Source of the DNA: Giardia intestinalis
Lineage: Eukaryota
Assembly (NCBI GenBank): GCA_000002435.2
Contig: AACB03000017.1
Reading direction: 5' to 3' (one strand)
DNA length: 10,211 nucleotides
This document shows positions 1 to 10,211 of the stretch, one piece after another (position 1 is the stretch's first letter; each line of letters opens with the position of its first letter). Under the pieces are notes generated by a model. It was not told the origin of the DNA, searched no databases, and worked only from the letters and a program-made list of their open reading frames with translations. The translations under genes and the position numbers were made by a program.

Positions 1-663
1 CTGTTTCCCCGGTCAACGAGGTGCGTCGATGGGCCAACCTGTCCTGGCATGCTGTTTCCCGGTCAACGAGGTGCGTCGATGGGCCTAGCTGGCCCGGAGT
101 CCCATTTCCCCGGTCAACGAGGTAGTCGATGGGCCTAGCTGGCCCGGAGTCCATTTCCCCGGTCAACGAGGTATGTCGATGGGCCAGCTGGCCGGCAGTC
201 TGTTCCCCGGTCAACGAGGTGCGTCGATGGGCCAACCTGTCCTGGCATGCTGTTTCCCCGGTCAACGAGGTGCGTCGATGGGCCTAGCGGCCCGGAGTCC
301 CATTTCCCGGTCAACGAGGTGCGTCGATGGGCCTAGCTGGCCCGGAGTCCCATTTTCCCCGGTCAACGAGGTGCGTCGATGGGCCAACCTGTCCTGGCAT
401 GCTGTTTCCCCGGTCAACGAGGTGCGTCGATGGGCCTAGCTGGCCCGGAGTCCCATTTCCCCGGTCAACGAGGTATGTCGATGGGCCTAGCTGGCCCGGA
501 GTCCCATTTCCCGGTCAACGAGGTGCGTCGATGGGCCAACCTGTCCTGGCATGCTGTTTCCCCGGTCAACGAGGTGCGTCGATGGGCCTAGCTGGCCCGG
601 AGTCCCATTTCCCCGGTCAACGAGGTGCGCGATGGGCCTAGCTGCCCGGAGTCCCATTTCCCC

Positions 664-714
664 GGTCAACGAGGTGCGTCGATGGGCCAACCTGTCCTGG
701 CATGCTGTTTCCCC
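664..714. repeat. Representative subfamily-A unit (variable block 'ccaacctgtcctggcatgctgtt')
   Basis: 'ggtcaacgaggtgcgtcgatgggccaacctgtcctggcatgctgtttcccc'. This is the majority type, roughly 95 of about 148 units by hand count. Confidence 0.9.
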
Positions 715-1564
715 GGTCAACGAGGTGCGTCGATGGGCCTAGCTGGCCCGGAGTCCATTTCCCGGTCAACGAGGTGCGTCGATGGGCCAACCTGTCCTGG
801 CATGCTGTTCCCCGGTCAACGAGGTGCGTCGATGGGCCAACCTGTCCTGGCATGCTGTTTCCCCGGTCAACGAGGTGCGTCGATGGGCCTAGCTGGCCCG
901 GCATCTTTTCCCCGGTCAACGAGGTGCGTCGATGGGCCAACCTGTCCTGGCATGCTGTTCCCCGGTCAACGAGGTATGTCGATGGGCCAACCTGTCCTGG
1001 CATGCTGTTTCCCCGGTCAACGAGGTGCGTCGATGGGCCAACTGCCCGGCATCTTTCCCCGGTCAACGAGGTATGTCGATGGGCCAACCTGTCCTGGCAT
1101 GCTGTTTCCCCGGTCAACGAGGTGCGTCGATGGGCCAACCTGTCCTGGCATGCTGTTTCCCCGGTCAACGAGGTGCGTCGATGGGCCTAGCTGGCCCGGA
1201 GTCCCATTTCCCCGGTCAACGAGGTATGTCGATGGGCCTAGCTGGCCCGGAGCCCATTTCCCCGGTCAACGAGGTGCGTCGATGGGCCAACCTGTCCTGG
1301 CATGCTGTTTCCCCGGTCAACGAGGTGCGTCGATGGGCCTAGCTGGCCCGGAGTCCCATTTCCCCGGTCAACGAGGTATGTCGATGGGCCTAGCTGGCCC
1401 GGAGTCCATTTCCCCGGTCAACGAGGTGCGTCGATGGGCCTAGCTGGCCGGAGTCCCTTTCCCCGGTCAACGAGGTGTCGATGGGCCTAGCTGGCCCGGA
1501 GTCCCATTTCCCCGGTCAACGAGGTGCGTCGATGGGCCAACCTGTCCTGGCATGCTGTTTCCCC

Positions 1565-1615
1565 GGTCAACGAGGTGCGTCGATGGGCCTAGCTGGCCCG
1601 GAGTCCCATTTCCCC
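1565..1615. repeat. Representative subfamily-B unit (variable block 'cctagctggcccggagtcccatt')
   Basis: 'ggtcaacgaggtgcgtcgatgggcctagctggcccggagtcccatttcccc'. It has the same 28-bp core. The 23-bp block differs from A at about 9 of 23 positions and is colinear, so it is a diverged version and not an insertion. Confidence 0.9.
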
Positions 1616-1766
1616 GGTCAACGAGGTATGTCGATGGGCCTAGCTGGCCCGGAGTCCCATTTCCCCGGTCAACGAGGTATCGATGGGCCTAGCTGGCCCG
1701 GAGTCCCATTTCCCCGGTCAACGAGGTGCGTCGATGGGCCAACCTGTCCTGGCATGCTGTTTCCCC

Positions 1767-2782
1767 GGTCAACGAGGTGCGTCGATGGGCCTAGCTGGCC
1801 CGGAGTCCCATTTCCCCGGTCAACGAGGTGCGTCGATGGGCCAACCTGTCCTGGCATGCTGTTTCCCCGGTCAACGAGGTGCGTCGATGGGCCAACCTGT
1901 CCTGGCATGCTGTTTCCCCGGTCAACGAGGTGCGTCGATGGGCCTAGCTGGCCCGGAGTCCCATTTCCCCGGTCAACGAGGTGCGTCGATGGGCCAACCT
2001 GTCCTGGCATGCTGTTTCCCCGGTCAACGAGGTGCGTCGATGGGCCAACCTGTCCTGGCATGCTGTTTCCCCGGTCAACGAGGTGCGTCGATGGGCCAAC
2101 CTGTCCTGGCATGCTGTTTCCCCGGTCAACGAGGTGCGTCGATGGGCCAACCTGTCCTGGCATGCTGTTTCCCCGGTCAACGAGGTGTCGATGGGCCAAC
2201 CTGTCCTGGCATGCTGTTTCCCCGGTCAACGAGGTGCGTCGATGGGCCAACCTGTCCTGGCATGCTGTTTCCCCGGTCAACGAGGTGCGTCGATGGGCCT
2301 AGCTGGCCCGGAGTCCCATTTCCCCGGTCAACGAGGTGCGTCGATGGGCCAACCTGTCCTGGCATGCTGTTTCCCCGGTCAACGAGGTGCGTCGATGGGC
2401 CAACCTGTCCTGGCATGCTGTTTCCCCGGTCAACGAGGTGCGTCGATGGGCCTAGCTGGCCCGGAGTCCCATTTCCCCGGTCAACGAGGTGCGTCGATGG
2501 GCCAACCTGTCCTGGCATGCTGTTTCCCCGGTCAACGAGGTGCGTCGATGGGCCAACCTGTCCTGGCATGCTGTTTCCCCGGTCAACGAGGTGCGTCGAT
2601 GGGCCAACCTGTCCTGGCATGCTGTTTCCCCGGTCAACGAGGTGCGTCGATGGGCCAACCTGTCCTGGCATGCTGTTTCCCCGGTCAACGAGGTGTCGAT
2701 GGGCCAACCTGTCCTGGCATGCTGTTTCCCCGGTCAACGAGGTGCGTCGATGGGCCAACCTGTCCTGGCATGCTGTTTCCCC
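1767..2782. repeat. Two tandem copies of a ~508-bp, 10-unit higher-order repeat (unit order B A A B A A A A A(48-bp deletion variant) A)
   Basis: Units starting at 1767 and at 2275 have the same order of unit types, including the same rare 48-bp 'ggtgtcgatggg' variant at the ninth position (about 2175 and about 2683). The offset is 508 bp, which is 9x51 plus the shortened unit within 1 bp. The ORF track shows identical 203-aa and 78-aa translations offset by 508 (1669..2280 vs 2177..2788, and 1944..2180 vs 2452..2688). Confidence 0.8.
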
Positions 2783-5700
2783 GGTCAACGAGGTGTCGAT
2801 GGGCCAACCTGTCCTGGCATGCTGTTTCCCCGGTCAACGAGGTGCGTCGATGGGCCAACCTGTCCTGGCATGCTGTTTCCCCGGTCAACGAGGTGCGTCG
2901 ATGGGCCTAGCTGGCCCGGAGTCCCATTTCCCCGGTCAACGAGGTGCGTCGATGGGCCAACCTGTCCTGGCATGCTGTTTCCCCGGTCAACGAGGTATCG
3001 ATGGGCCAACCTGTCCTGGCATGCTGTTTCCCCGGTCAACGAGGTGCGTCGATGGGCCAACCTGTCCTGGCATGCTGTTTCCCCGGTCAACGAGGTGCGT
3101 CGATGGGCCAACCTGTCCTGGCATGCTGTTTCCCCGGTCAACGAGGTGCGTCGATGGGCCAACCTGTCCTGGCATGCTGTTTCCCCGGTCAACGAGGTAT
3201 GTCGATGGGCCTAGCTGGCCCGGAGTCCCATTTCCCCGGTCAACGAGGTATGTCGATGGGCCAACCTGTCCTGGCATGCTGTTTCCCCGGTCAACGAGGT
3301 GCGTCGATGGGCCAACCTGTCCTGGCATGCTGTTTCCCCGGTCAACGAGGTGTCGATGGGCCAACCTGTCCTGGCATGCTGTTTCCCCGGTCAACGAGGT
3401 GCGTCGATGGGCCAACCTGTCCTGGCATGCTGTTTCCCCGGTCAACGAGGTGCGTCGATGGGCCAACCTGTCCTGGCATGCTGTTTCCCCGGTCAACGAG
3501 GTATGTCGATGGGCCTAGCTGGCCCGGAGTCCCATTTCCCCGGTCAACGAGGTGCGTCGATGGGCCAACCTGTCCTGGCATGCTGTTTCCCCGGTCAACG
3601 AGGTGCGTCGATGGGCCAACCTGTCCTGGCATGCTGTTTCCCCGGTCAACGAGGTGTCGATGGGCCTAGCTGGCCCGGAGTCCCATTTCCCCGGTCAACG
3701 AGGTGCGTCGATGGGCCTAGCTGGCCGGAGTCCCATTTCCCCGGTCAACGAGGTATGTCGATGGGCCTAGCTGGCCCGGAGTCCCATTTCCCCGGTCAAC
3801 GAGGTGCGTCGATGGGCCAACCTGTCCTGGCATGCTGTTTCCCCGGTCAACGAGGTGCGTCGATGGGCCTAGCTGGCCCGGAGTCCCATTTCCCCGGTCA
3901 ACGAGGTGCGTCGATGGGCCAACCTGTCCTGGCATGCTGTTTCCCCGGTCAACGAGGTGCGTCGATGGGCCAACCTGTCCTGGCATGCTGTTTCCCCGGT
4001 CAACGAGGTGCGTCGATGGGCCAACCTGTCCTGGCATGCTGTTCCCCGGTCAACGAGGTGCGTCGATGGGCCAACCTGTCCTGGCATGCTGTTTCCCCGG
4101 TCAACGAGGTATGTCGATGGGCCTAGCTGGCCCGGAGTCCCATTTCCCCGGTCAACGAGGTGCGTCGATGGGCCAACCTGTCCTGGCATGCTGTTTCCCC
4201 GGTCAACGAGGTGCGTCGATGGGCCAACCTGTCCTGGCATGCTGTTTCCCCGGTCAACGAGGTGCGTCGATGGGCCAACCTGTCCTGGCATGCTGTTTCC
4301 CCGGTCAACGAGGTATGTCGATGGGCCTAGCTGGCCCGGAGTCCCATTTCCCCGGTCAACGAGGTGCGTCGATGGGCCAACCTGTCCTGGCATGCTGTTT
4401 CCCCGGTCAACGAGGTGCGTCGATGGGCCAACCTGTCCTGGCATGCTGTTTCCCCGGTCAACGAGGTATGTCGATGGGCCTAGCTGGCCCGGAGTCCCAT
4501 TTCCCCGGTCAACGAGGTGCGTCGATGGGCCTAGCTGGCCCGGAGTCCCATTTCCCCGGTCAACGAGGTATGTCGATGGGCCTAGCTGGCCCGGAGTCCC
4601 ATTTCCCCGGTCAACGAGGTGCGTCGATGGGCCAACCTGTCCTGGCATGCTGTTTCCCCGGTCAACGAGGTGCGTCGATGGGCCTAGCTGGCCCGGAGTC
4701 CCATTTCCCCGGTCAACGAGGTGCGTCGATGGGCCAACCTGTCCTGGCATGCTGTTTCCCCGGTCAACGAGGTGCGTCGATGGGCCAACCTGTCCTGGCA
4801 TGCTGTTTCCCCGGTCAACGAGGTGCGTCGATGGGCCAACCTGTCCTGGCATGCTGTTTCCCCGGTCAACGAGGTGCGTCGATGGGCCAACCTGTCCTGG
4901 CATGCTGTTTCCCCGGTCAACGAGGTATGTCGATGGGCCTAGCTGGCCCGGAGTCCCATTTCCCCGGTCAACGAGGTGCGTCGATGGGCCAACCTGTCCT
5001 GGCATGCTGTTTCCCCGGTCAACGAGGTGCGTCGATGGGCCAACCTGTCCTGGCATGCTGTTTCCCCGGTCAACGAGGTATGTCGATGGGCCTAGCTGGC
5101 CCGGAGTCCCATTTCCCCGGTCAACGAGGTGCGTCGATGGGCCTAGCTGGCCCGGAGTCCCATTTCCCCGGTCAACGAGGTATGTCGATGGGCCTAGCTG
5201 GCCCGGAGTCCCATTTCCCCGGTCAACGAGGTGCGTCGATGGCCAACCTGTCCTGGCATGCGTTCCCGGTCACGAGGTGCGTCGATGGGCCAACCTGTCC
5301 TGGCATGCTGTTTCCCGGTCAACGAGGTGCGTCGATGGGCCAACCTGTCCTGGCATGCTGTTTCCCCGGTCAACGAGGTATGTCGATGGGCCTAGCTGGC
5401 CCGGAGTCCCATTTCCCCGGTCAACGAGGTGCGTCGATGGGCCAACCTGTCCTGGCATGCTGTTTCCCCGGTCACGAGGTCGCTAGCTGGCCCGGAGTCC
5501 CATTTCCCCGGTCAACGAGGTATGTCGATGGGCCTAGCTGGCCCGGAGTCCCATTTCCCCGGTCAACGAGGTGCGTCGATGGGCCAACCTGTCCTGGCAT
5601 GCTGTTTCCCCGGTCAACGAGGTGCGTCGATGGGCCAACCTGTCCTGGCATGCTGTTTCCCCGGTCAACGAGGTGCGTCGATGGGCCAACCTGTCCTGGC

Positions 5701-7538
5701 ATGCTGTTTCCCCGGTCAACGAGGTATGTCGATGGGCCTAGCTGGCCCGGAGTCCCATTTCCCCGGTCAACGAGGTGCGTCGATGGGCCAACCTGTCCTG
5801 GCATGCTGTTTCCCCGGTCAACGAGGTATGTCGATGGGCCTAGCTGGCCCGGAGTCCCATTTCCCCGGTCAACGAGGTGCGTCGATGGGCCAACCTGTCC
5901 TGGCATGCTGTTTCCCCGGTCAACGAGGTGCGTCGATGGGCCAACCTGTCCTGGCATGCTGTTTCCCGGTCAACGAGGTATGTCGATGGGCCTAGCTGGC
6001 CCGGAGTCCCATTTCCCCGGTCAACGAGGTGCGTCGATGGGCCTAGCTGGCCCGGAGTCCCATTTCCCCGGTCAACGAGGTGCGTCGATGGGCCTAGCTG
6101 GCCCGGAGTCCCATTTCCCCGGTCAACGAGGTGCGTCGATGGGCCAACCTGTCCTGGCATGCTGTTTCCCCGGTCAACGAGGTGCGTCGATGGGCCAACC
6201 TGTCCTGGCATGCTGTTTCCCCGGTCAACGAGGTGCGTCGATGGGCCAACCTGTCCTGGCATGCTGTTTCCCCGGTCAACGAGGTATGTCGATGGGCCTA
6301 GCTGGCCCGGAGTCCCATTTCCCCGGTCAACGAGGTGCGTCGATGGGCCAACCTGTCCTGGCATGCTGTTTCCCCGGTCAACGAGGTATGTCGATGGGCC
6401 AACCTGTCCTGGCATGCTGTTTCCCCGGTCAACGAGGTGCGTCGATGGGCCAACCTGTCCTGGCATGCTGTTTCCCCGGTCAACGAGGTGCGTCGATGGG
6501 CCAACCTGTCCTGGCATGCTGTTTCCCCGGTCAACGAGGTATGTCGATGGGCCAACCTGTCCTGGCATGCTGTTTCCCCGGTCAACGAGGTGCGTCGATG
6601 GGCCAACCTGTCCTGGCATGCTGTTTCCCCGGTCAACGAGGTATGTCGATGGGCCAACCTGTCCTGGCATGCTGTTTCCCCGGTCAACGAGGTATGTCGA
6701 TGGGCCTAGCTGGCCCGGAGTCCCATTTCCCCGGTCAACGAGGTATGTCGATGGGCCTAGCTGGCCCGGAGTCCCATTTCCCCGGTCAACGAGGTGCGTC
6801 GATGGGCCAACCTGTCCTGGCATGCTGTTTCCCCGGTCAACGAGGTGCGTCGATGGGCCAACCTGTCCTGGCATGCTGTTTCCCCGGTCAACGAGGTGCG
6901 TCGATGGGCCAACCTGTCCTGGCATGCTGTTTCCCCGGTCAACGAGGTATGTCGATGGGCCTAGCTGGCCCGGAGTCCCATTTCCCCGGTCAACGAGGTA
7001 TGTCGATGGGCCTAGCTGGCCCGGAGTCCCATTTCCCCGGTCAACGAGGTGCGTCGATGGGCCAACCTGTCCTGGCATGCTGTTTCCCCGGTCAACGAGG
7101 TGCGTCGATGGGCCAACCTGTCCTGGCATGCTGTTTCCCCGGTCAACGAGGTGCGTCGATGGGCCAACCTGTCCTGGCATGCTGTTTCCCCGGTCAACGA
7201 GGTGCGTCGATGGGCCAACCTGTCCTGGCATGCTGTTTCCCCGGTCAACGAGGTATGTCGATGGGCCAACCTGTCCTGGCATGCTGTTTCCCCGGTCAAC
7301 GAGGTGCGTCGATGGGCCAACCTGTCCTGGCATGCTGTTTCCCCGGTCAACGAGGTGCGTCGATGGGCCAACCTGTCCTGGCATGCTGTTTCCCCGGTCA
7401 ACGAGGTGCGTCGATGGGCCAACCTGTCCTGGCATGCTGTTTCCCCGGTCAACGAGGTGCGTCGATGGGCCAACCTGTCCTGGCATGCTGTTTCCCCGGT
7501 CAACGAGGTGCGTCGATGGGCCAACCTGTCCTGGCATG

Positions 7539-9583
7539 ATATCTATCTGAGACTTATCATTACTATACTTAGGTGGCATATTATATGTTCCTTTAACTAG
7601 ATAATGATTCAGATTAGAAACATTTTGGGCTCCAATGTCATAATAGCTAGATTGCTGATTCTTTTGATGACTCACTGAATTTTGCATCAAGGAGCAATTG
7701 ACACCCTTATCAACAAGCACTTGATTAATTTCGCAAGTAGAACCATTGTGAATAAATGCACCATCGTTTAAATCTCCGCTTAGATTTGTAGACGGATCAG
7801 CTAATGATTTAACACTCAAATGCTCCTCTTTCCATGCTACATGGCTTGATTGCTGGCTTAGGACTTCCGCCTCCCTCTGCGATTCGTACTGCATACTGGG
7901 ATCTTTGGCTTGTAAAACACTTCTGTTGCTAAGGTAATTAAGCTCAGGTGTGTAACCACTTAATTGGCGTGTGTTTTCATTTGGCAAAGTATCATACAAT
8001 GTGCTATCTTTAACAGAGAAAAGAGAGCTGTTATCTCCCCTATACCCTTGCTGGTTAGATACGCTTAGCTCCCGAGCGCCGGAGATACTTATGGTATTGT
8101 AAGGTGTATTGTCTTCATGAGATAGCTCCTTCACAGTCTCGTTTTCTCCCGGTTCTGGGTTAACAAGTGTGCTATAGCTCAAACCCCGTGCATGAGACGC
8201 CGTGATGGTAACATCATAAGGTGCTGATGGTGAAACCTGTGAACGCACGGGAAGATTTGGATCCCAACAATAGCTATGATCATACGGTGATACTGCTGTT
8301 AGAGGGGTGTTTATTTCTGACGTACTAATGTCGGACCTATCTGGCTTCTGCATCAATGTATTCTTATACTCCGTTGTATTATAAGTTGCTCTCTTCGTTT
8401 GTCGTGTGTAATCAGTCATATCATGGATTGTCTCAGCCTTGTCGTCTGGGCGCGCAGGGAATGTGTCTCCTGGCTTTCCGTATGCATAGCTCAGTACGCG
8501 GGCGCTTTTTACTAAAATCGGCCCGTCATTTCTATAAGGCGTGAGCCCCATATCGCTTCCAACTAGATTAGTTTCCATATCAGAAAAGATATCCTTCTGT
8601 GTTTTCTCTTTGTAGTCTTTTACGAGTTTATTCTCGTCTAACAATTCTTCTCTTGTTTGTGCTACCTTCTCCAGTTTATCTTTCCAATAGTTAGCCCATG
8701 ATATGTCGTCAGAAATAGTGACGGGCAGTGTTCCTGAAGTAGTACTGAGAACATTCTGTGTGTCTCCAGCCACAATTGCTGTGGGCATTGTAGCCAGCAG
8801 TGTTGCATTAGGTGTAAGTGCTATCTTCTTAGTGTCTTCAGATAACTGTACTTGGTGATCAATTGCGGTTGATTTCCCCGGTTCTATTGAATTACTTACA
8901 TTCCTAAATAATGTCTGTAAATTGCTTGTTGCAGCGGCACTATATCCATAGTTCTCTGGGCAGGTATTACTGTAATCGTTAGATTTGAATGTCTGCTGCT
9001 GAGACTTTGTCGCTACTAATTGATCTTGTGGAGCAGGTTTCGAAGAAGCTAAGTTGCCATATTGAGATTGGTGTAATGGGACAGTGATAAGGGGGTCTTG
9101 CTGAGATTTCGTCCAGTATGCCGGTGCTTTGGAAACCTGGCTTCGTAGGCTTTCAAACGCGGAGGGGAGCTGAGGAGGAGGCACGATGGGGCCGTGCTCC
9201 TTCAAATAGTCACGGTACACAGACCATGCTTTATGTATTCGTGGATGCTTGAGTAACTCATCTGCAGGAGGACGACTCCTGGGGTTATGATCGAGAAGCA
9301 GATTAATTATTCTGGTTAGCTCTGCACTGTAGCCGTGATATGATGTCTTTACAAAGGAACTGAGAGATTGTATGGCTTCCTGCTTGTTGGCACATGTCTC
9401 TCTGTACCGGCGAAGCGTGCACATTTCGTGTAGTACACATCCTAACATGAACATGTCGACCTTCGCCCCATACTTATGCCCCAAGAGCATTTCAGGCGCC
9501 ATGTAAACATAATCGCCAACCTGTTCAGAGATCTCAGACGCCTGACTCAAAGAGACTGCTTGACGCATACCGCCTAAAACCAC
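7539..9583 (-). CDS. Segment 3 of NEK-like kinase homolog: activation segment, C-lobe (subdomains VII to XI) and a ~560-aa low-complexity tail; the open frame continues into the satellite to 5840
   Basis: The ORF-track entry 5840..9583 begins at a GTG, which is an ORF-caller artefact; the frame is open from the stop at 9593-9595. 'VVLGGMRQAVSLSQASEISEQVGDYVYMAPE' has A-P-E at 9491-9499. 'DMFMLGCVLHEMCTL' is subdomain IX, close to NEK 'GCVLYELCTL'. 'HNPRSRPPADELLKHPRI' is subdomain XI. The unique part ends at 7539, and the last unique codons read ...KSQIDI before the repeat. Confidence 0.75.
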
Positions 9584-9660
9584 GCTGTGTTGTTAGACAA
9601 GAATATGGTTTCTGGACGTATGTTTCGATGAATTACTATTCCGACTTCGGGACAATTCAA
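9574..9660 (-). other. Catalytic-loop segment of the same kinase, encoded in a different minus-strand frame: 'LNCPEVGIVIHRNIRPETIFLSNNTAWF'
   Basis: Hand translation of the minus strand between the two ORF-track ORFs. The H-R-N codons are at 9622-9630. They align to the kinase HRDLKPENIFL catalytic loop, with D->N, K->R and N->T. The segment is bounded by a stop immediately upstream (minus-strand 'taa' at plus 9661-9663) and 'tag' at 9574-9576, so it joins the flanking segments only if a 1-nt shift is assumed at each end. Confidence 0.6.
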
Positions 9661-10061
9661 TTATAAGGTGAATGTAGGTAGGCAAGCACATCGCAGAGCT
9701 GGGCAAGAACCATCCAAATAGTGCTTTCGTCATAGAGATGCGCAGCCTCAAATCTGTCAACGATTTGCTGCCGTAAGCTCTGGCTTAAATATGCATCCAT
9801 GAAGACATAGTACGTGTGGCGGAACTGGTCGTGGAAAACATTATGAATCTGAAGAATTCCTGGGTGCTGAAGTCTCTGTGTTAGTTGATACTGTCGATCT
9901 ACATGCTCTCGAAGAGTAGTTGCAGATTGAGTGTAGTCTATAACTTTGCAGACAACGTCGTGTGAGGTCCACGTATCGTGCGCCCAATGAATCCTAGAAT
10001 GCTGCCCATGGGTAAGAAGAGGCCCAAGGCGGTACCTATCCATCAGGAGAGTCGTGAGCAT
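9657..10061 (-). CDS. Exon/segment 1 of NEK (NIMA-related)-like protein kinase homolog: N-lobe, kinase subdomains I to VIa; frame is interrupted at its 3' end
   Basis: 134-aa ORF. 'YRLGPLLTHGQHSRI' aligns to the NEK G-loop region but lacks GxGxxG. 'VVCKVIDY' corresponds to the VAIK lysine plus the NEK-typical K-E-L-D-Y context. 'HPGILQIHNVF' is subdomain IV, 'YYVFMDAY' is the hinge, and 'LAQLCDVLAYLHS' is subdomain VIa. It is the first in-frame ATG after an upstream stop, 4 codons upstream. The ORF stops 'TGA' at 9657-9659 immediately before the catalytic loop. Confidence 0.8.
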   Translation of the reverse strand: MLTTLLMDRYRLGPLLTHGQHSRIHWAHDTWTSHDVVCKVIDYTQSATTLREHVDRQYQLTQRLQHPGILQIHNVFHDQFRHTYYVFMDAYLSQSLRQQIVDRFEAAHLYDESTIWMVLAQLCDVLAYLHSPYN

Positions 10062-10211
10062 TGAGAGGCAAATTTAAGAATAAATTTACTCATTTGGATA
10101 GCATCATCGACGAATTGAGACATATATGGTGTTTTGACACTAAATACAGAAGAATCAAGCCAATTTCTTTTCAAGATAGGCGATGCTTGAGCAGAATTGT
10201 TGTCTTGTTCT
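10062..10211 (-). promoter_or_regulatory. AT-rich 5' flank of the kinase gene; possible core promoter, with a TATA-like 'catatatg' at about 10121-10128
   Basis: On the minus strand the sequence immediately upstream of the ATG is 'aaatgagtaaatttattcttaaatttgcctctca', which is AT-rich. 'atatat' lies about 62 nt upstream of the ATG. This is suggestive only. No organism-specific promoter model was applied. Confidence 0.2.

Follow-up and report, generated by a model that had tools for sequence, protein, structure and literature searches.

At one end of a 10,211-nucleotide stretch of DNA from Giardia intestinalis (contig AACB03000017.1; the whole stretch is referred to here as the window) begins a kinase-like gene in which nearly all of the catalytic signatures are altered and which is, in addition, interrupted by changes of reading frame, raising the question of whether it encodes a conserved pseudokinase, a kinase that works with unusual residues or the remnant of a gene. 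On its sequence, the gene is the previously catalogued Giardia lamblia WB GL50803_114469 (GK273), from a WB-like member of assemblage A. Indeed, the published WB protein aligned with the window in three tblastn segments, residues 1-133, 135-160 and 162-399, each in a frame of its own and each 100% identical; together they account for 397 of its 399 residues, with only K134 and C161, at two sites of deletion, falling outside the aligned stretches. In the published kinome curation this gene is classified as Nek-Unclassified, 1:1:1, with 'No ankyrin repeats', and carries the remark 'Dead Nek - missing D166, D184', the same verdict as that of the original prediction, which had been made from the DNA letters alone; a MPGQVGPSTHLVDRGNS repeat at the C-terminus is recorded as well, and the WB sequence is flagged there as non-identical to the GiardiaDB 2.3 model, with the reason unstated (Manning et al., 2011, Genome Biol 12:R66, Additional file 1). 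A first protein search returned no assemblage A proteins. In both of the short-read contigs examined (L003 and L004) the gene is truncated by the end of the contig at the repeat, and the exact L003 product is missing from the protein collection; the clustered database probably does not include contig-cut products of this kind.

From the N-terminus to the C-terminus, the gene encodes a Nek-type kinase domain without a workable active site, approximately 570 mostly unstructured unique residues and an array of 17-residue repeats, and all of the features described here lie on the minus strand. The start codon (ATG, 10059..10061) opens an N-terminus, MLTTLLMDRY, that is the same in the WB, P15 and assemblage B proteins. 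The pseudokinase domain (9236..10034) comprises residues 10-276 of the corrected protein, with boundaries as given by Manning et al. (2011, Additional file 1). The range originally assigned to the domain, 9491-10061, does contain motifs of the family, but the domain runs on to approximately 9236 and its GCVLHEMCTL motif lies at approximately 9411-9440; all of the motif strings quoted in support of the prediction were recovered from the minus strand, in the places given for them or close by, including the lysine codon of VVCKVIDY (9945-9947) and HRN (9622-9630). The unique C-terminal region, residues 277-842 (7539..9235), is an open frame that aligns with its orthologues; a Pfam scan identified no domain in it, while a per-block comparison of the orthologues singled out residues 541-630 (8174-8443) as strongly conserved, and its dN/dS was 0.11-0.18 in three pairwise comparisons. 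Upstream, the 3' end of a tandem Nek-type kinase gene occupies 10086..10211; the corresponding WB protein (XP_001704159.1 / KAE8302701.1) ends in ...SQFVDDAIQNE and has an intact C-terminus under both accessions. The window gene and its orthologues in P15 and in assemblage B are each the last in a tandem row of kinase genes.

The profile search and the structure prediction that had been proposed as checks both identified the domain as a protein kinase. The Pfam Pkinase profile (PF00069) scored 106.7 bits, with the cut-off at 31.7 (E=1.7e-30), a match that chance could not explain and that spans positions 6-261 of the 263 in the profile. For the P15 orthologue domain, which is 93% identical to the intact assemblage A domain encoded by L003, the AlphaFold2 model reached a pLDDT of 83.7 and a pTM of 0.84, and superposed by Foldseek on the solved structures of Aurora A, CaMKII and NEK2 with TM scores of 0.70-0.78. 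As judged from this model, the bilobal kinase fold is kept by the domain. By sequence, the best-scoring solved kinases in HMM alignments were human NEK1 and NEK2 (PDB 4apc and 2w5a), in support of the proposed NEK-like assignment. Their kinase domains are approximately 24% identical to that of the window over the whole domain and have in common with it the LGCVLYELCTL-type motif and the hydrophobic core. In contrast, both are active enzymes with a GxGxxG loop, an αC glutamate, HRD..K..N and DFG, all of which are missing from the Giardia protein.

The losses are distributed over the whole active site. The residues LGPLLTHGQHS (12-22) include the degenerate glycine loop T17-H-G-Q-H-S22 (9996..10013), which the profile alignment places opposite the IGEGSFG loop of NEK1, as had been proposed; only the middle glycine of GxGxxG is retained, with two of the three lost. 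Residues 1-30 are invariant across the window protein and its P15 and assemblage B orthologues, while the AII contig L003 departs at codon 18, within the glycine-loop region. The catalytic loop HRNIRPET (9607..9630) aligns with HRDIKSQN of NEK1 and HRDLKPAN of NEK2, so that the anticipated replacements of aspartate by asparagine (D166 to Asn147) and of lysine by arginine (K168 to Arg149) are borne out, and the loop is the same in WB, P15 and GS. At the DFG position, LGGMR is found in place of the LGDFG of NEK1 and NEK2, and the alignment of Manning et al. (2011) has the identical register, G165-M166-R167 (9563..9571). Since G165 stands opposite the DFG aspartate, D184 is absent. The original prediction had put 'LGG' at this position; in the window protein MRQ comes directly after LGG, and that register is two residues upstream of the aligned triplet, but the absence of a metal-binding aspartate stands. 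The misalignment by eye that could have undermined the prediction was confined to this motif, with HRN and the glycine loop at their catalytic positions. Two further losses had not been listed: the αC glutamate (E91), replaced by Gln57 (9891..9893) in the NEK1 and NEK2 alignments and invariant in the orthologues, and the catalytic-loop asparagine (N171), replaced by Thr152. The residues expected to be retained were all found: Lys39 (9945..9947), the VAIK lysine (K72), aligned with the lysine of NEK2 LVWKELDY and an invariant column in an alignment of 12 kinases; the APE motif of YMAPE, A189-P190-E191 (9491..9499), in which P190 and E191 are invariant columns of the same alignment; and the subdomain XI arginine, Arg264. 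A further C-lobe signature residue, Asp203, is kept too. A pseudokinase is defined operationally here as lacking K72, D166 or D184; the window domain lacks both D166 (HRN147) and D184 (G165), and HRN is found in three assemblages.

The same degenerate site is shared by the orthologues. The P15 protein (assemblage E; P0001, annotated 'Kinase, NEK') is 84-86% identical to the window protein and that of G. duodenalis assemblage B (P0002) is 76% identical; both contain the identical glycine loop, HRN and LGGMR, and, unlike the window, both have intact ORFs. Over the kinase domain, dN/dS was 0.069 for the pair of window and P15 and 0.034 for that of P15 and assemblage B. Comparison of these sequences indicates that strong purifying selection is at work and that the dead-site substitutions have become fixed in all three assemblages (A, E and B). 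Given that the degenerate motifs recur in the orthologues and that such selection acts on the domain (dN/dS 0.07), the gene is regarded as a conserved pseudokinase.

Two other views of the domain were considered. Kinases that lack some of the canonical residues are active in some cases, and HER3 binds ATP in spite of having HRN in place of HRD. The Giardia protein might, in the manner of WNK, CASK or HER3, rely on non-canonical residues and be an active, if atypical, kinase or a switch that binds ATP, and the invariant VAIK lysine, the HRN shared with HER3 and a conservation so strong that the domain must be functional in some way are all compatible with this. Nevertheless, six elements are jointly lost, namely two glycine-loop glycines, the αC glutamate, D166, K168, N171 and the DFG aspartate D184, and near G165-M166-R167 there is no obvious acidic residue that could compensate, which makes such an activity very improbable. 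The family assignment is more open to debate, as a recent reannotation questioned the Nek label for divergent Giardia kinases, arguing that most of the 'Neks' had been grouped mainly via in-paralogues, and renamed them ncPK/ncPsK (PMC12538575, 2025). The gene could accordingly encode a Giardia-specific non-core pseudokinase outside the Nek family, with its resemblance to Neks a nearest-neighbour effect of a divergent kinase. The fold search did not discriminate, with Aurora A, CaMKII and NEK2 tied at E values of approximately 1e-17 to 1e-18; in the single-sequence search Aurora A was only approximately 6 bits behind NEK1; and with the 876-residue query Pfam identified the kinase domain alone, and neither TALM-ankyrin repeats nor a recognised Nek-type C-terminal domain. 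On the other hand, when a profile of the orthologues was compared with the PDB, NEK1 (83.5 bits) and NEK2 (approximately 80 bits) were the sole chains with E<=1e-18, Nek-like motifs such as LGCVLHEMCTL (compared with LGCVLYELCTL) are present and the published class is Nek-Unclassified (Manning et al., 2011). A non-Nek origin is considered somewhat unlikely, although it carries appreciably more weight than residual catalysis, and the protein is referred to below as a Nek-type pseudokinase.

In the window, the kinase domain is split over three frames (10061..9663, 9660..9583 and 9580 downwards) because two single nucleotides have been deleted. The original prediction had worked with a frameshift-corrected protein; no single ORF encodes the domain, and the frameshifts corrected in this way are most likely to be sequence errors. 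The first deletion leaves 'AA' of the Lys134 codon AAA (9661..9662), a gap relative to P15, assemblage B, L003 and L004, so that the starting frame runs into a TGA stop at 9657-9659; the second leaves 'TG' of the Cys161 codon TGT (9581..9582), a gap relative to the orthologues and to both short-read contigs. K134 and C161 are both present in the WB protein. A third single-nucleotide deletion, of AAAA to AAA at about 10096, lies in the upstream gene and is a gap relative to L003 and L004. Over 897 nt, L004 differs from the window by no mismatches and exactly three 1-nt gaps. Against L003 there are 13 substitutions, with gaps at those three positions again. Since L004 is otherwise identical and lacks the deletions, and since the adjoining repeat array has defects of the same deletion-only kind, the frame breaks, which are peculiar to the window sequence, most probably arose as consensus errors during long-read assembly. 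The three deletions fall within approximately 520 nt of unique sequence and the next 2 kb is clean, which is somewhat odd for random error, and only two of the three have a homopolymer context.

The alternative that the frameshifts are real, for example as a result of relaxed selection in axenic culture, would make the dead Nek a newly true pseudogene in the source isolate and would alter the C-terminus of the upstream kinase. Three frame-breaking deletions do stand in the window, Nek pseudogenes and rapid gain and loss of Neks between strains have been reported (Manning et al., 2011), and 31 old WB kinase genes were deprecated in the 2025 reannotation (PMC12538575). This alternative is nonetheless rather improbable, given three deletions without a single substitution relative to L004, the purifying selection on the gene in three assemblages, the recurrence of deletion-only defects throughout the adjacent array and the absence of the broken ORF products, looked up exactly in a collection of 15 billion proteins, from every public assembly searched. 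The gene does not behave as a genomic pseudogene, with the frameshifts absent from L004 and L003 and a dN/dS of 0.07; what looks like a frameshifted pseudogene is best understood as a sequence error and should therefore not be counted as a gene loss. Biological bridging of the frames, by programmed ribosomal frameshifting, splicing or an alternative genetic code, has a vanishingly small probability. The TGA of the first frame does follow directly after the shift site, and CTAACAACACAG at 9585-9596 resembles the Giardia intron 3' motif. However, this string (with its CTAAC) codes for LSNNT, which is conserved in all orthologues, no GT-type 5' splice site is present upstream of the TGA, and excising candidate GT..AG segments leaves the frame broken. 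Programmed -1 frameshifting is opposed by the absence of a slippery heptamer (X XXY YYZ) at either site, and the orthologues and same-strain contigs contain a plain continuous ORF with one extra base per site. A code in which TAR specifies glutamine, as in hexamitid diplomonads, leaves the frames unjoined and the blocking stop is TGA, which is not known to be reassigned in the TAR-recoding diplomonads.

Downstream of the unique region, a tandem array of 51-bp units (1..7538, by TRF and unit analysis) contains at least 147 units and is cut by the edge of the window. In the frame of the gene it encodes the 17-residue repeat MPGQVGPSTHLVDRGNS and variants thereof. All four canonical unit types are exactly 51 nt long, and only the frame of the gene lacks stops in every one of them, but deletions of 1-2 nt farther into the array close this frame beyond 5840. 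The defective units have 63 deleted, two inserted and six substituted bases, and their share grows with depth. By comparison, the 2007 WB gene model contains 15 units, the assembled P15 array contains six and assemblage B contains approximately three; in P15 the annotated C-terminus is out of frame because one unit is only 50 nt long. Plus-strand ORFs of the array (for example 3832-7539) were rejected as genes and regarded as by-products of a GC-rich repeat, the repeat continuing the frame of the kinase gene in P15 and assemblage B; an exact look-up of the 1235-residue plus-strand ORF in the protein collection gave no matches. The long-read data suggest that the C-terminal repeat is approximately ten times the length of that in the reference gene model, which bears on the annotation of the GL50803_114469 locus. 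That the strain truly possesses at least 147 units, translated throughout in the frame of the gene, is a tentative proposal with chances somewhat below even. If so, the dead Nek would end in more than 2,500 residues made up of Pro/Gly-rich 17-residue repeats, in a protein of more than 3,300 residues, and would represent a lineage-specific, rapidly expanding multivalent scaffold.

Taken together, the evidence makes it probable that GL50803_114469 (GK273) is a conserved, non-catalytic Nek-type pseudokinase and that its frame breaks are consensus errors. The protein is inferred to be incapable of phosphate transfer, and binding of ATP-Mg by it is improbable. The organism fits this picture, as the original prediction had anticipated in its hint at a protist with expanded and often inactive Neks: the host is Giardia, with a massive, mostly inactive Nek expansion, in which 139 of the 195 Neks of WB are catalytically dead through the lack of K72, D166 or D184, and these dead Neks are Giardia-specific, stable between strains and presumed to be scaffolds (Manning et al., 2011). 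Like them and the Protein 21.1 family, the window gene encodes a kinase-like N-terminal domain in a presumed scaffold, but whereas two-thirds of Giardia Neks contain TALM-ankyrin repeats it has none, and displays instead a unique tail and a 17-residue tandem repeat. Its most likely role would be that of a non-catalytic scaffold or docking module, which may establish protein-protein contacts through the surface of the kinase fold and the repetitive tail, as has been suggested for the remaining dead Neks of Giardia, approximately 139 in number. The 2011 catalogue already contained the gene together with its dead catalytic site and its unusual repeat, and little here counts as a discovery. Strong purifying selection despite the loss of essentially every catalytic residue nevertheless makes it a clean example of a functional pseudokinase within the Giardia Nek expansion.

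The minus strand of the window carries a kinase-like gene distributed over three reading frames. The first, opening at the ATG at 10061 and closing at a TGA at 9657-9659, spans 134 codons (MLTTLLMDRYRLGPLLTHGQHS...LHSPYN); the catalytic-loop string LNCPEVGIVIHRNIRPETIFLSNNTA lies in the second frame, and the third, which holds VLGGMRQAVSLSQ...YMAPE...GCVLHEMCTL, remains open for 1247 codons, as far as 5840. All motif strings quoted in the original prediction are present, and its coordinates for HRN (9622-9630) and the VAIK lysine (9945-9947) are exact. The joined protein covers essentially the whole Pfam Pkinase model, scoring 106.7 bits where 31.7 is the cut-off (E=1.7e-30), the outcome of the profile search that had been proposed as a check; the kinase-like feature is genuine and far above chance.

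Protein searches identified full-length orthologues named 'Kinase, NEK' in G. lamblia P15 (assemblage E; 949 amino acids, 84-86% identity) and in G. duodenalis assemblage B (894 amino acids, 76%), in which the ORF is intact through the region and the LTHGQHS, HRNIRPET and LGGMRQ strings are the same. The WB protein is GL50803_114469, or GK273, which Manning et al. 2011 list in their Additional file 1 (Genome Biol 12:R66, PMC3218828), and its 399 printed residues matched the window in tblastn with 100% identity at 1-133, 135-160 and 162-399, the three stretches lying in three different frames. By this match the feature is a rediscovery of a catalogued gene, already known to the level of the specific gene. 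GK273 was classified as Other/Nek/Nek-Unclassified, with 1:1:1 orthology and the remark 'Dead Nek - missing D166, D184', and is expressed without differential expression (SAGE R = 3.1; PMC3218828). Neks account for 198 of the 278 Giardia kinases, and 139 of 195 are without K72, D166 or D184 (PMC3218828). A 2025 reannotation retained the pseudokinase verdict for such proteins but questioned whether every one of them is a true Nek and used the term non-core pseudokinases (PMC12538575).

In a single-sequence phmmer search of PDB sequences, NEK1 (4apc, 82 bits) and NEK2 (~79) ranked at the top, with Aurora A next (76), and with a profile of the three orthologous domains only NEK1 (83.5 bits) and NEK2 chains reached E<=1e-18. 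The NEK1/NEK2 alignments from these searches, from which the residue pairing was taken, place the altered glycine loop (L-T17-H-G19-Q-H-S22, keeping one of the three glycines of NEK1 IGEGSFG) and the altered catalytic loop (HRN147-I-R149-P-E-T152 against HRDIKSQN / HRDLKPAN) at catalytic positions, as had been predicted. LGG had been equated with DFG; the absence of the DFG Asp stands, but the alignments pair NEK LGDFG with LG-G165-M166-R167, which shifts the register of that assignment by two residues. Two further losses emerged, those of the alpha-C Glu (Gln57) and Asn171. The VAIK lysine (Lys39, paired with that of NEK2 LVWKELDY) is indeed retained, and so are APE (189-191), Asp203, Gly208 and Arg264, whose columns do not vary among 12 aligned kinases. 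The P15 orthologue domain as modelled by AlphaFold2 (pLDDT 83.7, pTM 0.84) displays the canonical order of strands and helices, and the kinase fold is thus predicted to be normal, in line with the structural check suggested earlier. Foldseek matched this model about equally to Aurora A, CaMKII and NEK2 (TM 0.70-0.78), and fold comparison alone does not decide the family. The profile alignments and best PDB matches to NEK1/NEK2 support the pseudokinase and NEK reading overall.

Beyond the unique tail lies a 51-bp tandem array (1-7538) of 64% GC that is truncated at the window edge and comprises at least 147 units; TRF counted 149 copies, and 146 anchored intervals (147 anchor sites) were resolved. 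Four exact 51-nt unit types account for 73, 21, 17 and 7 units, the other 28 being defective. These types encode MPGQVGPSTHLVDRGNS and GTPGQLGPSTYLVDRGN variants and are all stop-free in the kinase gene's frame only, which the 17-residue repeat continues. Whereas the window holds at least 147 copies, the 2007 WB gene model has 15, P15 six and assemblage B ~3, so that the C-terminal repeat appears about ten times the length given by the published gene model. Plus-strand ORFs of up to 1235 amino acids, such as 3832-7539 (+), are most likely non-coding by-products of the GC-rich repeat. The 28 defective units (21-5977; units 30-145) differ from their nearest canonical type by 63 deleted, two inserted and six substituted bases, mostly as 1-2-nt deletions; the farther the units lie from the unique flank, the larger the share that is defective (0/30, 3/30, 5/30, 7/30, 13/26). 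Six units of types E and H share one 2-nt loss, which turns GACGCAC or GACATAC into GACAC and looks like a systematic long-read consensus error; the deletion-only defects worsening with depth likewise look like long-read assembly consensus error, not natural decay.

Aligned at the DNA level with its P15 and assemblage B counterparts, the window shows two single-base gaps, at Lys134 (TAT-AA-TTG against TAT-AAA-TTG) and Cys161 (GCG-TG-GTT against GCG-TGT-RTT). Two independent assemblage A Logan short-read contigs were found via the upstream gene. That from SRR18693200 covers 2.7 kb of the window at 99.4%; the two differ by 13 substitutions, and the window has three 1-nt gaps against it. That from SRR26411002, which encodes the WB upstream protein exactly, reveals the same three gaps in the window and 0 mismatches over 897 nt. 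The third gap (AAAA to AAA, ~10096, minus strand) falls within the upstream kinase gene (3' end 10086-10211), 8 nt short of its stop codon; taken at face value, the upstream ORF would run into the start of GL50803_114469. It is absent from the short-read contigs and from the WB upstream product (XP_001704159.1 / KAE8302701.1), which ends intact (...AIQNE). The broken-ORF products did not occur in a collection of 15 billion proteins. The clustering of the three sites within 520 nt could mean that the gene has truly and recently become a pseudogene in the source isolate, but this is improbable given an otherwise identical contig without the deletions and array defects unlike natural decay. Since the deletions in unique sequence are of the same kind as the array defects, they are probably artefacts, and the frameshifts are best handled as errors in the sequence. 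An intron was also considered at CTAACAACACAG (9585-9596, minus strand), which resembles the Giardia intron branch/3' splice motif; it lies inside the conserved coding LSNNT with no matching 5' splice site, and the likeness was therefore judged coincidental.

GL50803_114469 closes a row of five kinase genes set in tandem on one strand, an arrangement conserved in assemblages A (332-11037 of the SRR18693200 contig, downstream of an HMG-CoA synthase gene), E (1-8850 of P15 contig ACVC01000096.1) and B (1-8685 of its contig). The SRR18693200 and P15 short-read contigs end in, or within ~100 nt of, the repeat array, and the SRR26411002 contig stops inside the kinase domain. The fourth P15 repeat unit (8671-8720 of ACVC01000096.1) has 50 nt (GGGACACC to GGACACC), probably through a homopolymer error in the P15 assembly. 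This shorter unit puts the C-terminus annotated for P15 (HRARWVRPRTSLIGETAC...) in the wrong frame, and an in-frame reading would finish with ...MPGQVGCF*.

Nei-Gojobori dN/dS on codon alignments of the kinase domain was 0.069 between the window and P15 (dS 0.42) and 0.034 between P15 and assemblage B; for the unique tail (residues 277-842; 7539-9235) it was 0.11-0.18 in all three pairs. Residues 1-30, including the degenerate glycine loop, are invariant among the window protein and both orthologues. A 90-residue tail block (541-630; 8174-8443), 87-97% invariant across assemblages A, E and B within an otherwise variable tail and lacking a Pfam match, may be a second functional module. On these values the dead domain is being maintained as a functional module and is not decaying.

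The domain thus combines a kept kinase fold and strong constraint with lost catalytic and nucleotide-binding residues. An unconventional catalytic mechanism seems very unlikely, because six catalytic elements are lost at once. Pfam found no ankyrin repeats in the protein and no domain in its long tail, which contains the one highly conserved block and the 17-residue repeat. The protein is instead most likely a non-catalytic scaffold or docking protein, in which the pseudokinase domain would provide an interaction surface and the 17-residue repeats a multivalent or spacer element. Such a scaffold would be consistent with the roles proposed for Giardia dead Neks (PMC3218828, PMC12538575).
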